The translations under genes and the position numbers were made by a program. Positions 3,109 through 15,264 of a stretch of DNA of 64,000 nt are shown one piece after another. This DNA is from Candidatus Bathyarchaeota archaeon (GTDB taxonomy: Archaea > Thermoproteota > Bathyarchaeia > TCS64): assembly GCA_043826455.1 (NCBI GenBank), contig JBDRQD010000046.1, positions 32,001 to 96,000 of the forward strand. The letters are read 5' to 3'. Each line of letters starts with the position of its first letter. The stretch's first letter is position 1. The notes under the pieces are model-generated. The model saw nothing but the letters and a program-made list of their open reading frames with translations. It searched no databases and had not been told where the DNA came from.

Positions 3109-4887
3109 TTGATTAGTTCTGACAAATTGAAAAAGATGTACTTGGAGTTTTTCCAAAAAAACGGACATAAAGTAATTGCGAACGCATCTCTTATACCAGA
3201 AAACGACCCAACCGCATTATTCATCTCAGCTGGGATGCACCCACTTGTACCATACCTACTGGGTCAACCGCATCCAAGTGGGAAAAAACTCGTAAACGTA
3301 CAGAAATGCCTCAGAACTAGCGACATCGATGAAGTGGGGGATAGTTTCCACCTGAGCTTCTTTGAGATGCTGGGAAACTGGTCTCTCGGAGACTACTTCA
3401 AGGAAGAATCAATTCCGTGGAGCTACGAGTTTCTCACGAGCAAAGAATGGCTCAATATCGATAAAAATAAGCTAAGTGTCACAGTCTTCGAAGGAGACGA
3501 AAAAGCACCAAGAGACACAGAAAGCGCGAAGATATGGGAAGGACTTGGAGTCCCCAAAGATCGAATATTCTATCTGCCTAGAGAGGATAACTGGTGGGGC
3601 CCCATAGGCAGCACTGGGCCATGTGGACCTGACACCGAGATGTTCTATGACACGGGTAAAGAGCCGTGCGGAAGTGAATGTAAGCCTGGTTGCTCCTGCG
3701 GAAAATTCAATGAGATATGGAACAATGTCTTCATGGAGTACAATAGAACCTCAGACGGAGAGTATGAACTGCTTGAACAGAAGAACGTTGACACGGGGAT
3801 GGGGGTTGAGCGAACAGTCGCGGTTTTACAGGGAAAGGATAACGTATATGAGACCGAGATATTCGCTCCCTTAATTGAAAAAATTATAGAACTTGCTGGT
3901 AATGGAGTAATCCCCTATGAAATCCCTGAAAATCAGATTAGAAGCGTCAGAATAATATGTGATCATTCTCGTGCAGCCACTTTTCTTCTAGCCGAAGGAA
4001 TAGTTCCTTTGAATGTGGAGCAAGGATACGTTTTAAGGAGAGTCATTAGAGGAGCTATCAGACACGGAAAACTGATAGGAATAGAAGACGAGTTCCTAAG
4101 CATACTAGCTCAGATCGTAATAGAAACATACTCTGAAGATTACCCTCACCTAAAGTCGAGTGAAGACTTTATCGTAACCGAGCTAGGAGAAGAGTACAAG
4201 AAATTTAACAACACACTGGCAAGGGGTTTAAACAGATTCAATAGAATAGCCAGAAACAATAAAAAAATCGACGGCAAGGACGCGTTCCTACTTTACCAGA
4301 GCTTTGGCTTCCCAATAGAAATAACGAAGGAGCTGGGGAAGGAGAACGGCATCTTCGTTGATGTAGATGGATTTCATGAGGAGTTCGAGAAACATCAAGA
4401 AGTGTCCAGAGCCAGCGCTGACAAAAAGTTTGGGAGCGGTCTAGCTGACACGGCTGACGAGACGGTGAAACTGCACACCGCGACACACTTGCTCAATGAG
4501 GCGTTGAGACGGGTCTTGGGGAAAGATATCACCCAGAAGGGCTCAAACATAACACAGGAGCGTCTACGGTTTGACTTCAACTTCGACAGAAAGCTATCTG
4601 ACGAAGAGATTGAGGAAGTGGAAAAGGTGGTTAACGAGCAGATCAGGAAAGCTCTTCCAGTTAAGAGAATTGAGACTACATTAGACAAAGCAATAAAGAT
4701 GGGGAGTCAGGCGGTGTTCGAGCAGAAATACGGGGAAAAGGTCTCGGTATATTCTGTTGGTGGCTTCTCGACGGAGCTATGCAGCGGCCCACATGTGAAG
4801 AATACGCGTGAGCTTGGACGATTTAAGATAGTTAAGGAAGAAGGTATCTCCGCAGGCGTCCGCAGGATAAGAGCAGTCCTCGAATAA
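3109..4887 (+). CDS. alaS: Alanine--tRNA ligase, short form lacking C-Ala
   Basis: QKCLRT, FFEMLGNWS, WWGPIGSTGPCGP, DTGMGVER; editing domain HTATH...CSGPH; ends GVRRIRAV at 592 aa. Confidence 0.95.
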   Translation: MISSDKLKKMYLEFFQKNGHKVIANASLIPENDPTALFISAGMHPLVPYLLGQPHPSGKKLVNVQKCLRTSDIDEVGDSFHLSFFEMLGNWSLGDYFKEESIPWSYEFLTSKEWLNIDKNKLSVTVFEGDEKAPRDTESAKIWEGLGVPKDRIFYLPREDNWWGPIGSTGPCGPDTEMFYDTGKEPCGSECKPGCSCGKFNEIWNNVFMEYNRTSDGEYELLEQKNVDTGMGVERTVAVLQGKDNVYETEIFAPLIEKIIELAGNGVIPYEIPENQIRSVRIICDHSRAATFLLAEGIVPLNVEQGYVLRRVIRGAIRHGKLIGIEDEFLSILAQIVIETYSEDYPHLKSSEDFIVTELGEEYKKFNNTLARGLNRFNRIARNNKKIDGKDAFLLYQSFGFPIEITKELGKENGIFVDVDGFHEEFEKHQEVSRASADKKFGSGLADTADETVKLHTATHLLNEALRRVLGKDITQKGSNITQERLRFDFNFDRKLSDEEIEEVEKVVNEQIRKALPVKRIETTLDKAIKMGSQAVFEQKYGEKVSVYSVGGFSTELCSGPHVKNTRELGRFKIVKEEGISAGVRRIRAVLE

Positions 4888-8796: not shown

Positions 8797-9786
8797 ATGA
8801 TAGCGCTAGGCGTCGAGTCCACGGCGGACAACCTGGGCATAGGCATAGTGTCCAGCGACAAACGCGTCCTAGCCAACATACTGGACGTCCACGTCCCCCA
8901 GGAGGGCGGCATCCACCCACGGGAGGCCGCCAGGCACCACAGCGAGCAGATGGGCGCCACCGTCAGGAAGGCCCTCGACACCGCCGGCATAAGCATCAGC
9001 GAGGTGGACATCATAGCCTTCGCCCAGGGACCCGGCCTCGGCCCCTGCCTCAGAACCGGAGCCACCAGCGCCCGCGCCCTCGCCAGCTACCTGAACAAGC
9101 CCCTGGTGGGCGTCAACCACTGCGTCGCCCACGTGGAGATAGGCCGCATGGCCACAGGCGCAGAGGACCCCCTCACCCTATACGTCTCGGGGGGCAACAC
9201 CATAGTCAGCGGCTACGAGTCGGGCAGGTACCGCATATTCGGGGAGACCCTGGATATAGCCGTGGGCAACTGCCTAGACAGCTTCGCCCGGGCCGCCGGC
9301 CTCGAGTACCCCGGAGGCCCCGACATAGAGCGGAAGGCCGCCCAGGGCGAGAAGCTGATACCGCTACCCTACACGGTGAAGGGCATGGACCTCAGCTACA
9401 GCGGCCTGCTGACGGCCATCACAGCCGAACTCCAGACGGGCAGGCACAGAATCGAGGACCTGTGCTTCAGCCTTCAGGAAACGGCCTACGCCATGCTGGG
9501 GGAGATCACGGAGCGGGCTCTGGCCCACACCGCCAAGCCCGAGCTGCTCCTAACCGGCGGCGTCGCCGCCAACAAGCGGCTGGGCAGCATCGTCAAGGCT
9601 ATCGCGGAGGAGCACGGCGCCAAGCCCTTCGTGGTACCGATAAGGCTGGCGGCGGACAACGGCGCCATGATCGCGTGGACAGGGATACTCGCGTACAACT
9701 CCGGCATCAGGACACCCATAGAGGAGAGCCTCGTGAACCCAAGCTGGAGAATGGATCAGGTGGAGGTACCATGGCGAAGCTCATAG
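8797..9786 (+). CDS. kae1: KEOPS t6A threonylcarbamoyltransferase Kae1/TsaD
   Basis: GGIHPREAARHH, GPGLGPCL, VNHCVAHVE, GETLDIAVGN, DNGAMIA. Confidence 0.96.
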   Translation: MIALGVESTADNLGIGIVSSDKRVLANILDVHVPQEGGIHPREAARHHSEQMGATVRKALDTAGISISEVDIIAFAQGPGLGPCLRTGATSARALASYLNKPLVGVNHCVAHVEIGRMATGAEDPLTLYVSGGNTIVSGYESGRYRIFGETLDIAVGNCLDSFARAAGLEYPGGPDIERKAAQGEKLIPLPYTVKGMDLSYSGLLTAITAELQTGRHRIEDLCFSLQETAYAMLGEITERALAHTAKPELLLTGGVAANKRLGSIVKAIAEEHGAKPFVVPIRLAADNGAMIAWTGILAYNSGIRTPIEESLVNPSWRMDQVEVPWRSS

Positions 9787-10400
9787 CCAGAGGCGCCGAG
9801 GCCGACCTCATCCTCACAGACTGGAACGGGCTCAGAGCCCTCGTCAAGACCCGTAAACCAAAGAAGTACAGGCACCCCGAGCTGGACAGGCAGCTCAGGA
9901 AGACCCGCACCAGGGCCGAGGCGGACATCATCCACAGGGTCAAGGCGGCCGGCGTACCAACACCCCTCCTATACCAGGTGGACCCCGAGAACGCCATCAT
10001 AGTCATGGAGTACATCGACGGCGTCAAGGTCCGGGACCTGGTGGACAGGTTAAACGACGAGGATAGGCGAACCCTGTTCCTAAGGATCGGCCGCTACGCG
10101 GGCACGCTACACGGCATGGGCGTCATCCACGGGGACCTCACCACCAGCAACATAATAAAAAGCGGGGACAGGATCGTGTTCATAGACTTCGGCCTCAGCG
10201 AGGTGAGCCGGGAAGTGGAGAAACGGGGCGTGGACCTGAACCTCATGAACAGGATGCTCACCAGCACACACTACAGGCACCAGGAGGCCCTGCTCGAAGC
10301 CTTCAAGGCCGGTTACAGGGAGACCAACCCGGAGGCCGAGGAAGCCCTCCAGCGGATGGAGGAGGTCGCCCGGAGGGGACGCTACATTGAGAAGAACTAG
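9771..10400 (+). CDS. bud32: KEOPS kinase Bud32
   Basis: MAKLIARGAEA (ATG 9771), HGDLTTSN, IDFGL, C-terminal RRGRY. Confidence 0.95.
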   Translation: MAKLIARGAEADLILTDWNGLRALVKTRKPKKYRHPELDRQLRKTRTRAEADIIHRVKAAGVPTPLLYQVDPENAIIVMEYIDGVKVRDLVDRLNDEDRRTLFLRIGRYAGTLHGMGVIHGDLTTSNIIKSGDRIVFIDFGLSEVSREVEKRGVDLNLMNRMLTSTHYRHQEALLEAFKAGYRETNPEAEEALQRMEEVARRGRYIEKN

Positions 10401-10944
10401 GATATGGATGGGCACCAGCAGCGACCACAAATACGAGGAAGCAAAGGAAGTGCTCGCGGAGTACGGCGTCGAGCTGGAGCGCCTGGGCATAGACCGCGTA
10501 GAGATACAGGCGGACGACCCGGAGATCATCGCAGAGTTCAGCCTAAGGCAGCTGGACGTGGACGTGCCCATACTCATCGAGGACGCGGGCCTCTACATAG
10601 ACAAGTACTTCGGGTTCCCGGGCCCCTACAGCAGCTACACCCTCCGCACCATCAGCAACGAGGGCATACTCAAGCTCATGGAGGGCGAAGAAGAGCGCGG
10701 CGCCCGCTACCTCTCGGCTGTGGCCTACCGCGACGGCGACACCTCGGTCACCTTCACCGGCGAGGTCCGCGGAGTGATAGCCCACGAGTGCAGGGGCACC
10801 GGGGGCTTCGGCTACGACCCCATCTTCATCCCTGATGAGGGGGACTGGCGAACTTTCGGCGAGATGACCCCCGAGGAGAAGGCCAGAATAAGCCACAGGG
10901 CCAGAGCCTTCAGGAAGCTGGGGGAGTGGCTCAGGAAACAGTAG
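10387..10944 (+). CDS. rdgB: Non-canonical purine NTP pyrophosphatase (RdgB/HAM1)
   Basis: EDAGL, FPGPYS, GFGYDPIF, SHRARA. Confidence 0.95.
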   Translation: MRRTRIWMGTSSDHKYEEAKEVLAEYGVELERLGIDRVEIQADDPEIIAEFSLRQLDVDVPILIEDAGLYIDKYFGFPGPYSSYTLRTISNEGILKLMEGEEERGARYLSAVAYRDGDTSVTFTGEVRGVIAHECRGTGGFGYDPIFIPDEGDWRTFGEMTPEEKARISHRARAFRKLGEWLRKQ

Positions 10945-10948
10945 CCTA

Positions 10949-11887
10949 CTAGGCCAGAATTTCGGGCCACCTGTCGATCATGTACTTGGTGGCGTCCGCT
11001 ATCTCGAAGGGCCTCGAACCGTTGCCCGTGCGCACGTAGAAGTGCTGCTTGCCCTTGTGGCTCATGAAGGCGGGTTCCTGGCTGCTCTGCACGGTGACGC
11101 GGCACACCTCCATGCCGTCCACCTCGTAGAATCTGAACCTGACGTACCTGAGGTACAGGTCCCCGATCTTGTTGGAGATCTGGTTGATGATATAGTTCTC
11201 GAAGCCGTCCCTGTTGGGCTTAGGCAGTGTCCGGTAGTCGTGCCCCAGGCCCACCACGGCTCGGTCATCGTTCACACCTATGACCAGCTCGCCGCCGTCA
11301 GCGTTCATGAAGGCGCACAGCGTCTTCAGGCAGTTGACCTCAAGCTCCTGGTCCACACACTTGCCCCGGGTGTTGTACCTGAGGCTGGCCTTGAACTCCA
11401 GGTGGGGCCCCTCGTCCAGGTTTATAAGCTCCTCCACGTCCGGGGGGGCATTGAGCTCCCAGCTGTTCTTGGCGTAGTTCCTCATTATCTCGGGCTGAAG
11501 GCTGGCGATGTCGGTTAGGCTCAGGATGCCCAGGACCTTCCCCCCGTCTCGGGGGTGGATGACGGGCAGCTTCTTGATCCGTTTGTTGAGCATGATCTTG
11601 CCGGCCTCCTCTAGGCTCATCTCGGGGTCAGCCGAGATGACGGACCGGGTCATGACTTCCTCCACGGCGGTGACCTTGGGGTCCCTGCCGCTGGCCACCA
11701 CCCTCTGAAGGACGTCCCTCTCCGTGAGTATCCCGTCCACGTTGCCGCTGCCCGAGACGATGACGCTGCTGATGCCGAACCGGGTCATCACCCGGGCCGC
11801 GTCCTCCACGGACTCGACGGGGGAAATGGAGACGACGCTGAGAGTCATAAGGTCCTTTACCTTGAGGGCCGAAGCTTGTGGCCTCAT
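10949..11887 (-). CDS. CBS-pair plus Schlafen/AlbA_2 domain fusion protein
   Basis: N-terminal CBS pair (VKDLMT, GILTERD, KKLPV, GILSLTD); C-terminal EGPHLEFKAS, CAFMNADGGELVIGVND, FYVRTGNGS. Confidence 0.85.
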   Translation of the reverse strand: MRPQASALKVKDLMTLSVVSISPVESVEDAARVMTRFGISSVIVSGSGNVDGILTERDVLQRVVASGRDPKVTAVEEVMTRSVISADPEMSLEEAGKIMLNKRIKKLPVIHPRDGGKVLGILSLTDIASLQPEIMRNYAKNSWELNAPPDVEELINLDEGPHLEFKASLRYNTRGKCVDQELEVNCLKTLCAFMNADGGELVIGVNDDRAVVGLGHDYRTLPKPNRDGFENYIINQISNKIGDLYLRYVRFRFYEVDGMEVCRVTVQSSQEPAFMSHKGKQHFYVRTGNGSRPFEIADATKYMIDRWPEILA

Positions 11888-12044: not shown

Positions 12045-12968
12045 TCACATCGTCTTGTGCCAGTAATAGTAGTCATACCTCTCAGTGAACCCAGTCACCT
12101 CGTACAGCCGGTTCGCCGCCGGGTTGTCCGCTGCCCCGCCGATGTAAAGCAGCGCCGGATCATACCTCTCCAGGCGCCTGAAGCCCTCGCATAGTAGGGC
12201 CCTCGCAAGGCCTCGCCCACGGTACTCCGGGAGGGTCCCCATCGGCTCCAGCTCGGTTATACCGCTGGGAGGGTCCAGCCTGAAGGTGCAGAACGACGCT
12301 ATCTTCCCGTCCTGGTCAACGGCCACGAGGTCAAGGTCCTTATGATAGAACGACGCGCGGGAGGTCTCCTCCAAGACCTCCTTGGTGAACCACTCACCGT
12401 GCCCGAAGACAGCCCTGACGCCCCTGGCGATCTCCTCAAAGTCCTTCTCAGGGCATACGGACCGCACCTCAAACCCGTCCGGGACCCTGTAGCCGGGAAT
12501 GGGGGCGTCCACGTCGCGCAGACGCAGTATACCGTAGACCGCCCCTCTCTCGAAGCCGTGCCTCCGGAGCGCCTTCTCCCTCGCCGGGTTCCCCTCGAGG
12601 GCGACGACTGAGAGCCTCAGCCCCCCGGGCTCCGCCCTCTGAGCGGCGCTGTGATCCTCGATCCATTGGATGATCTCCTCCTCGAGGAAGCTGTGGTCAG
12701 GGTGGATCTGGATGAAATAGCGGAACTTGGCCTCGGGGTTGGCCACCGCCAGTATCCTCGGCCTCTGCTCTCCACTGCAGAACTCCCATATGCGTGTGTC
12801 GGACTCCATTCCTCTGCCGCTGTTCTCGAAGCGGGGTGGCAGCCAGTTGTGAAGGCTAGCAGTCTCGGAGTAGGTGTCCCGGAGAAAGCTCATTACCGCC
12901 TGGAAATCGTCTTCGCGTCGGTACCCGCGTGAAGATACTGGCATGCGTATTGGTGTCATGGGGATCAA
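12045..12968 (-). CDS. GNAT family N-acetyltransferase (tandem domain)
   Basis: EPMGTLPEYRGRGLARALL and NPAANRLYEVTGF; exact start uncertain. Confidence 0.88.
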   Translation of the reverse strand: MIPMTPIRMPVSSRGYRREDDFQAVMSFLRDTYSETASLHNWLPPRFENSGRGMESDTRIWEFCSGEQRPRILAVANPEAKFRYFIQIHPDHSFLEEEIIQWIEDHSAAQRAEPGGLRLSVVALEGNPAREKALRRHGFERGAVYGILRLRDVDAPIPGYRVPDGFEVRSVCPEKDFEEIARGVRAVFGHGEWFTKEVLEETSRASFYHKDLDLVAVDQDGKIASFCTFRLDPPSGITELEPMGTLPEYRGRGLARALLCEGFRRLERYDPALLYIGGAADNPAANRLYEVTGFTERYDYYYWHKTM

Positions 12969-13153: not shown

Positions 13154-13600
13154 ATGGTAGGAAAACTCTCAACGATGCGGGGCGGAAGCCGAAGCACCAG
13201 GCCGGTGAGCAAGAGGCCCCCCAACTGGGTAGTCTACCAGCCCGACGAAGTACAGGCACTCATCATAAACCTGACCAGGGAGGGCAAGACCCAGAGCCAG
13301 ATAGGCAACATCCTCAGAGACGTCCACGGAGTGCCTCTGGTCAAGCCTATAGTGGGCCACGGCATCAGGAAGGTCCTGGACGAGGCCGGGCTAGCTCCCA
13401 AGATCCCCGAGGACATCTACAACCTGATGGTGGTCGCCACGCGCCTCCGGAGACACCTGGACCGTAACCCCAAGGACTTTCACAACAAGAGGAGCCTCCA
13501 GCTGACGGAGAGCAAGATATACAGGCTCACCCGGTTCTACAAGAAGCGGGGACTTCTGCCCAAGGACTGGAGTCACAGGCAGGAGATAGTCACCGTCTAG
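13154..13600 (+). CDS. rps15: 30S ribosomal protein S15 (uS15)
   Basis: SQIGNILRDVHGVP, IPED, LTESKIYRL. Confidence 0.96.
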   Translation: MVGKLSTMRGGSRSTRPVSKRPPNWVVYQPDEVQALIINLTREGKTQSQIGNILRDVHGVPLVKPIVGHGIRKVLDEAGLAPKIPEDIYNLMVVATRLRRHLDRNPKDFHNKRSLQLTESKIYRLTRFYKKRGLLPKDWSHRQEIVTV

Positions 13601-13610
13601 CGGGGTCCCT

Positions 13611-15032
13611 ATGGCCCAGCCTGACGGCTTCCTTCGATCCTTTGCGCCCGCAGTCCACCTCTTTCGTGAGCACGCCAGTAGAGGCAGCAGGATACGTATT
13701 GTGACCCACAACGACGCTGACGGCCTCAGCAGCGGAGGCATAGTCTGCGTCGCCGCCCACAGGGCGGGAGCGTCTTTCAGGGTGACAAGCGAGAAGAAGC
13801 TGGACGAGAAGCTGGCCCGGAGCCTGGGGGATGAGAACCCGCCCCTGACGGTGTTCACTGACTTCGGCAGCGGCTACCTGGACATCATCTCGGAGAACCT
13901 GAGCCGTGACGTCATAGTGCTGGATCACCACCTGTGCCAGGAGGCTGAGGCGGCCAACATTGTCCACGTGAACCCCATGCTCCACGGTATCGACGGGGCC
14001 AGGGACATTGCGGCCTCGGGCATCAGCTACCTCTTCGCCAAGGCCCTTGACCCCAGGAACATGGACCTGAGCTGCCTGGGCCTCATAGGGGCCCTGGGGG
14101 ACCAGCAGGACAAGGGGGAGCGCAAGTCTCTCGCCGGCCTCAACGCGCTCATCGAGGAGGACGCAACAGGCGCTGGGCTCCTGGAGAAGCACGTGGGCCT
14201 CATCTTCTACGGGTACGAGACCAGGCCCCTGCCCAGAGCCATCGCCTACACCACAACCCCCTACATTCCTGGACTGAGCGGCAACGAGGGCAACTGCGTG
14301 GCCTTCCTCAAGCAGATAGGGATAGAGCTGAGCAAGGGGGAGCAGCTCAGGGCCCTCGCGGACCTCACGGAGGACGAGAAGCGCACCCTCTTCAGCGCCC
14401 TCAGCAGCCACATGGTGAGCACCGGCTGCGACCCGGGGAGCGTCCACGAGCTCATAGGCACCATCTACACCTTCAGGCTGGAGGACCCCGGCACCGCCCT
14501 CAGGAGCGGCCGCGAGTACGCCAGCCTCCTCAACGCCTGTGGCAGGATGGGGAAGGGGGGGCTCGGCCTCAGCATATGCCTCGGGGACAGGGGGGAGGCC
14601 ATGGAGGAGGCCCAGCAGACCCTGGACGAGTACCGCCGCAGGATCGGCTCGGCCCTGGACCTGGTGCAGATGAAGGGCATGGTGGAGGAGCTGGAGGGCA
14701 TCTACGTGATCCGGGCCGGGGACAGGATAGACGACACAGTCATAGGCGTCGTCTCAGGCATCCTTCTTAGTCAGGGGATGCTGAAGGCCACGAAGCCCAT
14801 AGTTGCCACGGCCCTCAGCGAGGACGACCAGGTAAAGGTCTCCGCCAGGGGCACCGAGGAGCTGGCCAAAGGGGGTCTCCACATGGGCAAGGTGATGCAG
14901 GAGGCGGCTGAGGCCCTGGGGGGCGGCGGCGGTGGACATGACGTGGCGGCCGGAGCATACGTACCTGTTGATAAGGAGGAAGATTTCATAGCTAAGGTGA
15001 ACAGCCTTGTCCGGGAGAAGCACGCCGAGTGA
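13611..15032 (+). CDS. RecJ-like DHH phosphoesterase
   Basis: HNDADG, DFG, DHH, DHHA1 GGGHDVAAGA; conserved position after rps15. Confidence 0.92.
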   Translation: MAQPDGFLRSFAPAVHLFREHASRGSRIRIVTHNDADGLSSGGIVCVAAHRAGASFRVTSEKKLDEKLARSLGDENPPLTVFTDFGSGYLDIISENLSRDVIVLDHHLCQEAEAANIVHVNPMLHGIDGARDIAASGISYLFAKALDPRNMDLSCLGLIGALGDQQDKGERKSLAGLNALIEEDATGAGLLEKHVGLIFYGYETRPLPRAIAYTTTPYIPGLSGNEGNCVAFLKQIGIELSKGEQLRALADLTEDEKRTLFSALSSHMVSTGCDPGSVHELIGTIYTFRLEDPGTALRSGREYASLLNACGRMGKGGLGLSICLGDRGEAMEEAQQTLDEYRRRIGSALDLVQMKGMVEELEGIYVIRAGDRIDDTVIGVVSGILLSQGMLKATKPIVATALSEDDQVKVSARGTEELAKGGLHMGKVMQEAAEALGGGGGGHDVAAGAYVPVDKEEDFIAKVNSLVREKHAE

Positions 15033-15264
15033 GACTAGGATCACCATCAGGTACAGCAGCCCCGAGGCCGCTGAGGCCATAATGAGGGCCATCGCGCCGG
15101 ACAACACGGGGGCCCCGGAGGGTATGAGCATTGAGGCTCATGTGGATGGAAGCACTCTCAGCGTCGACGTCGTGAGCAGCAGGGGTCTGGGAAGCCTGGT
15201 GTCCACCTTGGACGACCTTCTCAGCTGCGTCCAGGCCGCCGAGGCGGCTTTAAAACAGTTATAG
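15007..15264 (+). CDS. pcc1: KEOPS subunit Pcc1
   Basis: AIAPDN, LGSLVSTLDDLL; conserved synteny after the RecJ-like gene; start uncertain. Confidence 0.82.
   Translation: MSGRSTPSETRITIRYSSPEAAEAIMRAIAPDNTGAPEGMSIEAHVDGSTLSVDVVSSRGLGSLVSTLDDLLSCVQAAEAALKQL

Follow-up and report, generated by a model that had tools for sequence, protein, structure and literature searches.

A CBS-pair–Schlafen fusion protein of Bathyarchaeia, a candidate adenylate-gated tRNA nuclease

The window, that is, the whole stretch of 64,000 nucleotides of bathyarchaeal DNA analysed here, carries a gene in which a CBS pair is joined to a Schlafen (AlbA_2) domain, a real sensor-effector variant that has apparently not been described. 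The fusion is near-core in the host genus, shows largely vertical descent, stands mostly at one housekeeping site (rdgB/rps15) and is under purifying selection. Regarding its function, we tentatively favour, at somewhat short of an even chance, a CBS-dimerised, adenylate-gated tRNA nuclease that would act as an energy/stress translation brake of the host. The features of the locus are collected in Table 1.

Table 1. Features of the fusion locus, with positions in the window
Feature	Position	Strand	Basis
CBS-pair + Schlafen (AlbA_2) fusion gene, 312 aa	10949..11887	-	ORF, Pfam, 80 two-domain homologues
CBS pair (Bateman module), aa 8-132	11492..11866	-	Pfam, fold, alignment
Linker, aa 133-149, variable, low-confidence	11441..11491	-	pLDDT, alignment
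Schlafen/AlbA_2 nuclease domain (predicted), single-lobe, aa 150-307	10967..11440	-	Pfam, fold
Catalytic motif (predicted) E159-x4-E164-F-K166	11390..11413	-	invariant 57/57; SLFN14 alignment
GVxD motif G204-V-N-D207	11267..11278	-	G and D invariant; = SLFN14 D249 by counting
Upstream element TCCATAA	11922..11928	-	conserved; common to host stand-alone CBS genes
kae1-bud32-rdgB, bordering the insertion site on the left; context, outside the system	8797..10944	+	Pfam, synteny
GNAT acetyltransferase, variable slot cargo	12045..12968	-	only 2 other fusion loci have it
rps15-recJ(DHH)-pcc1, right flank of the insertion site, context	13154..15264	+	Pfam, synteny

The fusion protein and its two halves

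The gene is an intact open reading frame of 312 codons, running from ATG to TAG. Pfam profiles recognised two CBS stretches in the product (E = 2.3e-26) and SLFN_AlbA_2 at residues 159-294 (E = 5.2e-20; score 72.6 bits, cut-off 25.3). A protein search of a 90% cluster database returned 112 matches, 80 of them with both domains, so the fusion is neither a chance event nor an assembly chimera, and the combination of a CBS pair with AlbA_2 that an earlier note had read from this DNA is borne out. The Schlafen domain is attached to CBS2 through a linker whose length varies among aligned homologues, with pLDDT of 57-63 over residues 131-150. In two of four long-piece RNA runs (X2 and X4, from two studies), contigs of relatives, approximately 90-97% alike, cover parts of the gene; strand and level are unreadable there and DNA carry-over is possible, so no claim of expression is made.

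Both CBS motifs of the first half contain G-h-h-T/S-x-x-D/N, as a Bateman module demands under the definitions in the accessible text of PMC6429129. The motif reads G52-I-L-T55-E-R-D58 in CBS1, where G52, T55 and D58 are invariant in 57/57 homologues, and G120-I-L-S123-L-T-D126 in CBS2, where G120 and D126 are equally invariant and position 123 is Ser or Thr; the predicted ribose-binding aspartates, D58 and D126, are therefore retained throughout. The h-y-y-h-P stretch is complete in CBS2 (I104-K105-K106-L107 invariant, P108 in 55/57) and reads I39-S-S-V-I43, without proline, in CBS1. Being basic, R/K57, K105 and K106 would be suited to phosphates.

By fold, the CBS part matches solved CBS pairs with Z up to 17. 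By sequence, it matches the generic pair 4fry (E = 9.3e-17) and chains of ribosome hibernation factors (9zni_6, E = 2.9e-14; 9sr9_H, E = 3.7e-9). The latter matches, together with the binding of ribosomes and AMP by archaeal CBS tetrads (described in the accessible text of PMC13728122) and the location of most fusion copies among translation genes (KEOPS, leuS, rps15, rps8e, SRP19, thiI), would suit a factor of ribosome or RNA turnover, in which the CBS dimer would dock as a four-CBS module on ribosome or tRNA and the Schlafen domain would make a specific processing or recycling cut without translation shutdown. We consider this improbable. The hibernation-chain matches are no better than those to generic CBS pairs, the chain has two CBS motifs and no HPF domain, its CBS part groups with stand-alone CBS pairs of the host, and proximity to translation genes is commonplace in the genomes of archaea.

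In support of a putative CBS dimer, a model of two copies scored 0.66 against 0.01 for the best control, a pass that may reflect resemblance to solved CBS modules; the mark was attained by 20 of 30 solved pairs and by one of 23 single chains. Between runs, 69% or more of the contacts coincided, and pLDDT was at least 80. In this model the confident interface lies between CBS1 and CBS1 (residues 27-35 and 56-71) and is formed by conserved residues, and no confident contact was found between the Schlafen domains. AMP was included without scoring of its position.

Regarding the ligand, the earlier note had suggested control by energy charge or by a second messenger. The nucleotide-gated RNase stays the leading model, with the CBS ligand motifs intact, and the part concerning c-di-AMP is unlikely. 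Diadenylate cyclase (DAC) was found in 0/32 host-genus genomes, which are incomplete (control 11/14); Cas10/Cmr2 occurs in one of the 32 and not in the host; and weak SMODS matches in 21 of the 32 were CCA-adding enzymes in both cases checked. Because of these counts, c-di-AMP, cOA and CBASS ligands, and a dedicated cyclic messenger in general, are unlikely, and an ordinary adenylate is taken as the default candidate.

In the second half, the sequence reads E159-G-P-H-L-E164-F-K166 plus G204-V-N-D207. Residues E159, E164, K166, E183, K188, N195, G204, D207, R286, N289, S291 and R292 are invariant in 57 aligned fusions, and E159, E164, K166 and D207 also in 40/40 Schlafen domains, including 20 bacterial outgroup rows. 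A profile of the domain finds the structures of human SLFN14, SLFN11, SLFN12 and SLFN5 and rat SLFN13 by sequence (E = 1.5e-8 to 1.2e-3). E159/E164/K166 align with SLFN14 E206/E211/K213, so that the E-x4-E-F-K active-site pattern claimed earlier is intact, and D207 falls on D249 when counted along the same alignment. In SLFN11, according to the accessible text of PMC9482658, E209, E214 and K216 are essential and the D252A mutant remains active. GVxD, which had been cited alongside, therefore stands as a family motif that may not be catalytic everywhere, and is weaker evidence than was implied. The spacing of E159/E164/E183/D207 appears similar to that of the four acids E14/D19/D45/E65 used by bacterial Avs9 (PMC12680541, accessible part).

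Since CBS matches filled the whole-protein fold searches, the Schlafen domain was folded separately, giving a model with pLDDT of 94.3. It matched DIP2311 (Z = 13.8, rmsd 3.2, 142 aligned), SAMD9 (Z = 13.1, rmsd 3.4, 154 aligned), SLFN11 7zep (Z = 9.9, rmsd 3.8, 125 aligned) and SLFN13 (Z = 9.8, rmsd 2.9, 116 aligned). The structures of SLFN11/13/14 gave Z of 9.5-10.3 in comparison with at most 4.6 for unrelated folds, and the comparison with SLFN11 and SLFN13 that had been proposed thus yields a Schlafen fold. With the AlbA_2 profile and fold, the Ex4(E/D)xK motif in its sequence and the fusion to a sensor/oligomerisation domain, the protein is a prokaryotic Schlafen by fold and motif.

One might still suppose that the CBS pair serves dimerisation alone, as a scaffold, or that the Schlafen domain binds nucleic acid and does nothing more, leaving the protein ungated or without nuclease activity. 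The missing proline of CBS1, the unscored AMP and the existence of inactive Schlafens (PMC9482658, accessible part) lean towards such a reading. The inactive Schlafens, however, are without the E/E/K residues that are invariant here, and the two G-h-h-T/S-x-x-D motifs, like I-K-K-L, show little or no variation; we give this reading little credence.

Distribution, descent and genomic setting

A scan of one genome per species yielded 40 fusion loci, of which 36 are titled Bathyarchaeia or Bathyarchaeota, two uncultured archaeon, and two bear bacterial titles. The latter two records (L001 and L030) have archaeal gene order and are nested among Bathyarchaeia in the tree; their titles are probably mislabels. 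Among 401 genomes of the class, judged by a match at E < 1e-60 spanning the CBS and Schlafen domains, the fusion is present in 27/32 genomes of the host genus, in 4/18 of another genus from its family and in 0/351 others. In a 28th host-genus genome the copy is frameshifted and lies next to an assembly gap; in two near-complete genomes the slot is taken by other genes, with no fusion there; and the remaining two of the 32 could not be judged. Two fusion loci occur in 11 of the 31 carriers, one such locus having internal stops. In a 50% cluster library, six of the best 150 of 2043 strong matches span both domains, and a distant independent fusion could rank lower. In a phylum sample, the Schlafen profile matched 4/301 genomes, the CBS fusion occurring in the host genome only. 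None of 11 pattern matches in viral contigs was a relative, and in a search for longer fused forms none of 113 matches contained both domains (7999 candidates scored). Within the genomes sampled, the fusion is found only in Bathyarchaeia. In one genome (L036:4789-6807) an upstream PrpD-family gene and the fusion form one 673-codon frame, which represents a frameshift, an assembly error or a true triple fusion.

In the tree, one bathyarchaeal TIR-Schlafen groups with all 38 fusion Schlafen domains in a clade of 39 rows (99/95), which comprises three fusion subclades and a base whose branching is not settled; a single origin would be consistent with this. Further relatives are the C-terminal parts of GmrSD, type I HsdR, Eco57I/MmeI-type, BrxL, TIR, STAND and bPH_2 proteins, and the Schlafen half probably derives from a defence-protein lineage (TIR, GmrSD and HsdR fusions). 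The CBS part groups, with modest support, among stand-alone CBS proteins of approximately 150 aa from the host's order. The most likely origin of the gene is the appending of a defence-type Schlafen domain to a duplicated host CBS gene whose promoter was retained; TCCATAA is common to the fusion and the stand-alone CBS genes.

Several neighbouring architectures were observed in the course of this comparison. The TIR-Schlafen (about 470 aa; L039:877-2292; P0256, P0259, P0270), from one bathyarchaeal record, is the closest non-CBS Schlafen relative, at 50% identity; a metagenome scan for its context found nothing, and no full-length TIR-Schlafen occurs in the 401 class genomes. Fusions of bPH_2 with Schlafen (about 330 aa; L042-L076) from Patescibacteria account for 13 of 20 outgroup loci scanned and are absent from the 55 architectures of PMC13056530. 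In two other Bathyarchaeia (L193:886-6174 and L110:4781-9856), an SF2 helicase, an SMC-like ATPase and a Schlafen protein of about 310 aa form a three-gene cassette that resembles a defence system. From a different class of the phylum comes an EVE-GmrSD-Schlafen fusion of 909 aa (L194:5775-8501), encoded close to an Eco57I-type methylase.

The element TCCATAA lies 41 nt before the fusion ATG; it occupies the BRE position, and a weak TATA-like box follows after ~4 nt. TCC(A/G)(T/C)AA is found upstream in 31/34 fusion loci of all subclades (4% of shuffles), in 27/29 stand-alone CBS genes of the related group, one miss having its upstream region cut, and in 0/14 other CBS genes. In the host genome TCCATAA precedes the fusion and 2/13 other CBS genes, and tRNA promoters show a plain purine-rich BRE where it stands. 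The TATA box averages 4.7 of 6 in fusion genes (n = 31) against 5.3 in stand-alone genes (n = 20); since the rows are kin, a weaker box in the fusion genes is suggestive. A bacterial sigma-70 scan was uninformative for this archaeal promoter. In 9/10 genomes of other genera the 7-nt element also stands upstream of a TrmB-family regulator gene; in the host genus, 20/20 genomes have a TCCAGA(A/T) variant there. TCCA(T/G)A(A/T), seen in the host genome also at C64:37009 and C61:32330, is common to stand-alone CBS genes, the fusion and the TrmB-family regulator gene across one Bathyarchaeia order, possibly as a small regulon or a TFB-specific promoter class. It may act as an operator or serve a single TFB as its BRE. 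The host genome has 11 TFB paralogues, one of which (C9) has TCCATAA 41 nt upstream of the called start and a wider gap to a TATA-like box. Genome-wide, TCCATAA gave 12 upstream matches in the host compared with 3-7 for five control words, which does not establish a regulon, and 35 matches against 10 controls in five relatives, some counted twice.

At the left flank, Pfam confirmed Kae1 (TsaD), Bud32 (RIO1/kinase) and RdgB (Ham1). The rdgB stop ends 4 nt from that of the fusion, and the two genes are convergent in 24/40 loci; the remaining copies occupy a few other sites, including hsp20/thiI, rps8e/SRP19 and transglutaminase/mscS. In 5/5 outgroup genomes examined, rdgB leads to rps15 with no fusion between, and the rdgB-rps15 interval is therefore regarded as an insertion slot. 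Other cargo of the slot comprises GNAT, PrpD and Dam and, by inspection, a PLP enzyme and transporters; the orphan Dam accompanies the fusion in four loci and also occupies the slot without it. The convergent position against kae1-bud32-rdgB remarked earlier is thus correct, and reflects insertion between rdgB and rps15, other copies lying at unrelated sites. A functional link to KEOPS is unsupported, given the outgroups without the fusion and the paralogues elsewhere, and the adjacency looks incidental. Elsewhere in the window, the GC content of an alaS-like gene (3109-4887, 592 aa) is 44-46% in surroundings of about 60%, and its counterparts in several relatives are only 26-42% identical, possibly a gene replacement.

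PADLOC was run on 127 representatives of neighbour families, taken from 423 called genes at 50 partly redundant loci; flanks were 6-8 kb or less, and contig ends often truncated them. One match was of defence type, a Dam-type methylase lacking a restriction partner; the other matches were generic (Bud32 kinase, SMC/ABC ATPase, HTH proteins). The fusion protein itself matched 0 families at E up to 1. As controls, a GmrSD-Schlafen was recognised and two TIR-Schlafens were missed, so the library has blind spots. Apart from the orphan Dam, known defence genes, which accompany most published prokaryotic Schlafens (pSlfns), were not found within these flanks of 6-8 kb or less. The earlier suggestion of a defence effector finds no backing in this context, the neighbours (1/127 families of defence type) speaking against a defence island.

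Over 19 syntenic loci, fusion distances follow those of kae1+bud32+rdgB (rho 0.76, with 0/300 permutations as high), and the main clades of the fusion and its neighbours agree. The fusion is about twice as diverged as they are (p-distance 0.378 versus 0.193), with a median identity of 58% against 74-85%. Five neighbours gave crude pairwise dN/dS of 0.12-0.21 and the fusion 0.21 (46 pairs); when all copies were taken, median values were 0.30 in the CBS part (64/528 pairs usable) and 0.35 in the Schlafen part (91/528), with a maximum of 0.65.

Proposed mechanism and physiological role

We infer the ligand, direction of gating, substrate and physiological role in the following steps. A stand-alone CBS-pair gene of the host would have been duplicated with its promoter and gained a C-terminal Schlafen domain from a defence lineage. 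In the product, the CBS pairs are modelled as dimerising head to head. They would bind or exchange an ordinary adenylate, either AMP/ADP versus ATP, or Ap4A. The adenylate change would then reshape the CBS module and pair two single-lobe Schlafen domains into a cutting-competent form, by precedent of MgtE and CNNM, in which ligand binding flattens or closes the CBS module according to the accessible accounts, and of SLFN-pAgo, whose single-lobe domains must pair to create the cleft (10.64898/2026.05.29.728809, accessible part). Subsequently, the putative metal site of E159/E164/K166 would cut tRNA and slow translation, as is suggested by SLFN11, RorSlfn5 and Cash. The protein would be kept as an energy/stress translation brake of the host rather than as an island-borne antiviral gene.

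Near-core presence, vertical descent, the fixed site and the shared promoter element favour this brake. The faster divergence, the loss from two near-complete genomes and the duplication in 11/31 carriers also fit defence genes, and the nearest Schlafen domains, which belong to defence proteins, count against the brake. So do the antiviral role of all characterised prokaryotic Schlafens compared here, the want of a confident contact between Schlafen domains in the two-copy model and the fact that destruction of tRNA is a costly way to idle. Furthermore, the host has a multi-CBS protein of 391 aa (L198:121-1293; AHA/HibA-like in size, Pfam CBS only) that may already be a protective hibernation factor, which would likewise count against the brake. 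In a related reading, possible and held with limited confidence, a Schlafen tRNase would have been domesticated from defence and wired to the host CBS energy sensor and promoter, so that low energy charge would lead to tRNA cutting, translation arrest and dormancy. If true, one genus of sediment Bathyarchaeia would possess a one-protein route from low energy to dormancy.

The main competitor, which we judge less likely than the brake, is an antiviral abortive-infection effector outside islands: the CBS pair would sense adenine nucleotides shifted by infection, or a viral protein, and free the Schlafen tRNase in the manner of DS-11, whose phage defence needs both the CBS ligand residue and the HEPN catalytic residues (PMC13092281, accessible part). 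The company of the closest Schlafen domains (TIR, GmrSD, HsdR, Eco57I/MmeI-type and BrxL domains), the TIR-Schlafen within the 39-row clade (99/95), the faster evolution, losses and duplications, and the orphan Dam at four loci are all compatible with it, as is the 30.4% of published prokaryotic Schlafens without known defence neighbours (PMC13056530, accessible part). Near-core presence in the genus, the fixed site and largely vertical descent argue in the other direction, and so do the metabolic nature of the other cargo (GNAT, PrpD, PLP enzyme, transporters), the occupation of the slot by Dam without the fusion, the want of a PADLOC match for the protein and the retained host-type promoter. 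The energy brake and the antiviral role could both be valid if infection and starvation shift the same adenylate pool.

The characterised prokaryotic Schlafens compared here are all antiviral, triggered by phage proteins, cA4 or guide-target pairing. The fusion family is a compact candidate for a non-immune Schlafen and for a tRNase that a core metabolite controls directly. If the brake is real, it would link CBS energy sensing, tied to archaeal ribosome hibernation, to RNA cleavage in slow-growing sediment archaea. If the protein is antiviral, it would join DS-11 as a second CBS-gated defence nuclease and offer a way to the ligand of the latter. On either reading, it is a candidate ligand-switchable RNase of 312 aa that is readily assayed.

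Comparison with known systems

No description of a CBS-Schlafen protein was found in the literature covered, which included few subscription papers; a CBS class might be listed among the 103,533 proteins of the SLFN-pAgo survey. In the accessible text of PMC13056530, whose genomes are without Bathyarchaeia, a CBS class is absent from the 55 prokaryotic Schlafen architectures and no table entry names CBS, PF00571 or Bathyarch. There, 69.6% of pSlfns have known defence genes within 10 kb, and non-immune roles of some are thought possible, without example. These pSlfn1-55 (including RorSlfn5 with its Ig-like sensor and EcoSlfn7 with DUF262) share with the fusion a single-lobe AlbA_2 domain, the Ex4(E/D)xK motif and a putative sensor, and the nearest relatives of its Schlafen domain include DUF262/GmrSD fusions, as in EcoSlfn7. 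The fusion differs in having a candidate metabolite sensor in place of a phage-protein sensor, a housekeeping site and near-core presence in one genus.

Human SLFN11/13/14 and the SAMD9 tRNase domain resemble it in fold (Z = 9.5-13.1) and in the E/E/K/D site, at 19-24% identity; the fusion is without their N-lobe, zinc finger and helicase/NTPase. Stand-alone CBS pairs (4fry, 2yzi, 2rc3) and the hibernation factors AHA/HibA, Sri and Dri share the Bateman fold and ligand motifs and are without a nuclease. According to the accessible text of PMC13728122, these factors are CBS tetrads. They protect ribosomes rather than cut RNA, and each chain carries four CBS motifs, in some cases with HPF, whereas the fusion combines two such motifs with a Schlafen domain. 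SLFN-pAgo RzAgo also has a single-lobe Schlafen domain and rebuilds the two-lobed cleft by nucleotide-driven oligomerisation, unlike the fusion using a GHKL ATPase and Argonaute as sensor (10.64898/2026.05.29.728809, accessible part).

Cash (Schlafen-Csx15) is likewise a Schlafen tRNase with an E-D/E-K triad, switched by an adenine-nucleotide sensor through a change of oligomer; its sensor, however, is the Rossmann-like Csx15, which binds cA4 of type III CRISPR, and a CBS fusion is not described in the accessible text and supplements of PMC13462974. With CBS as its sensor and Cas10/Cmr2 in 1/32 genomes, the fusion stands outside Cash. CBS-HEPN proteins were proposed as nucleotide-responsive regulators of RNA stability (PMC3710099, accessible part). 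Among them, DS-11 (NCBIfam NF053863) is an anti-phage protein of demonstrated defence activity, and no CBS-containing defence system had been characterised previously, as stated in the accessible text of PMC13092281. DS-11 likewise combines a CBS module and an RNase in one protein, with dimerisation thought necessary and control by an adenine derivative proposed, its effector being HEPN and not Schlafen. The fusion matches NF053863 over residues 80-129 only, within the CBS part, at 20.2 bits against a cut-off of 260, and is not a DS-11 member. By analogy, it is DS-11 and Cash that the fusion appears to resemble most in logic.
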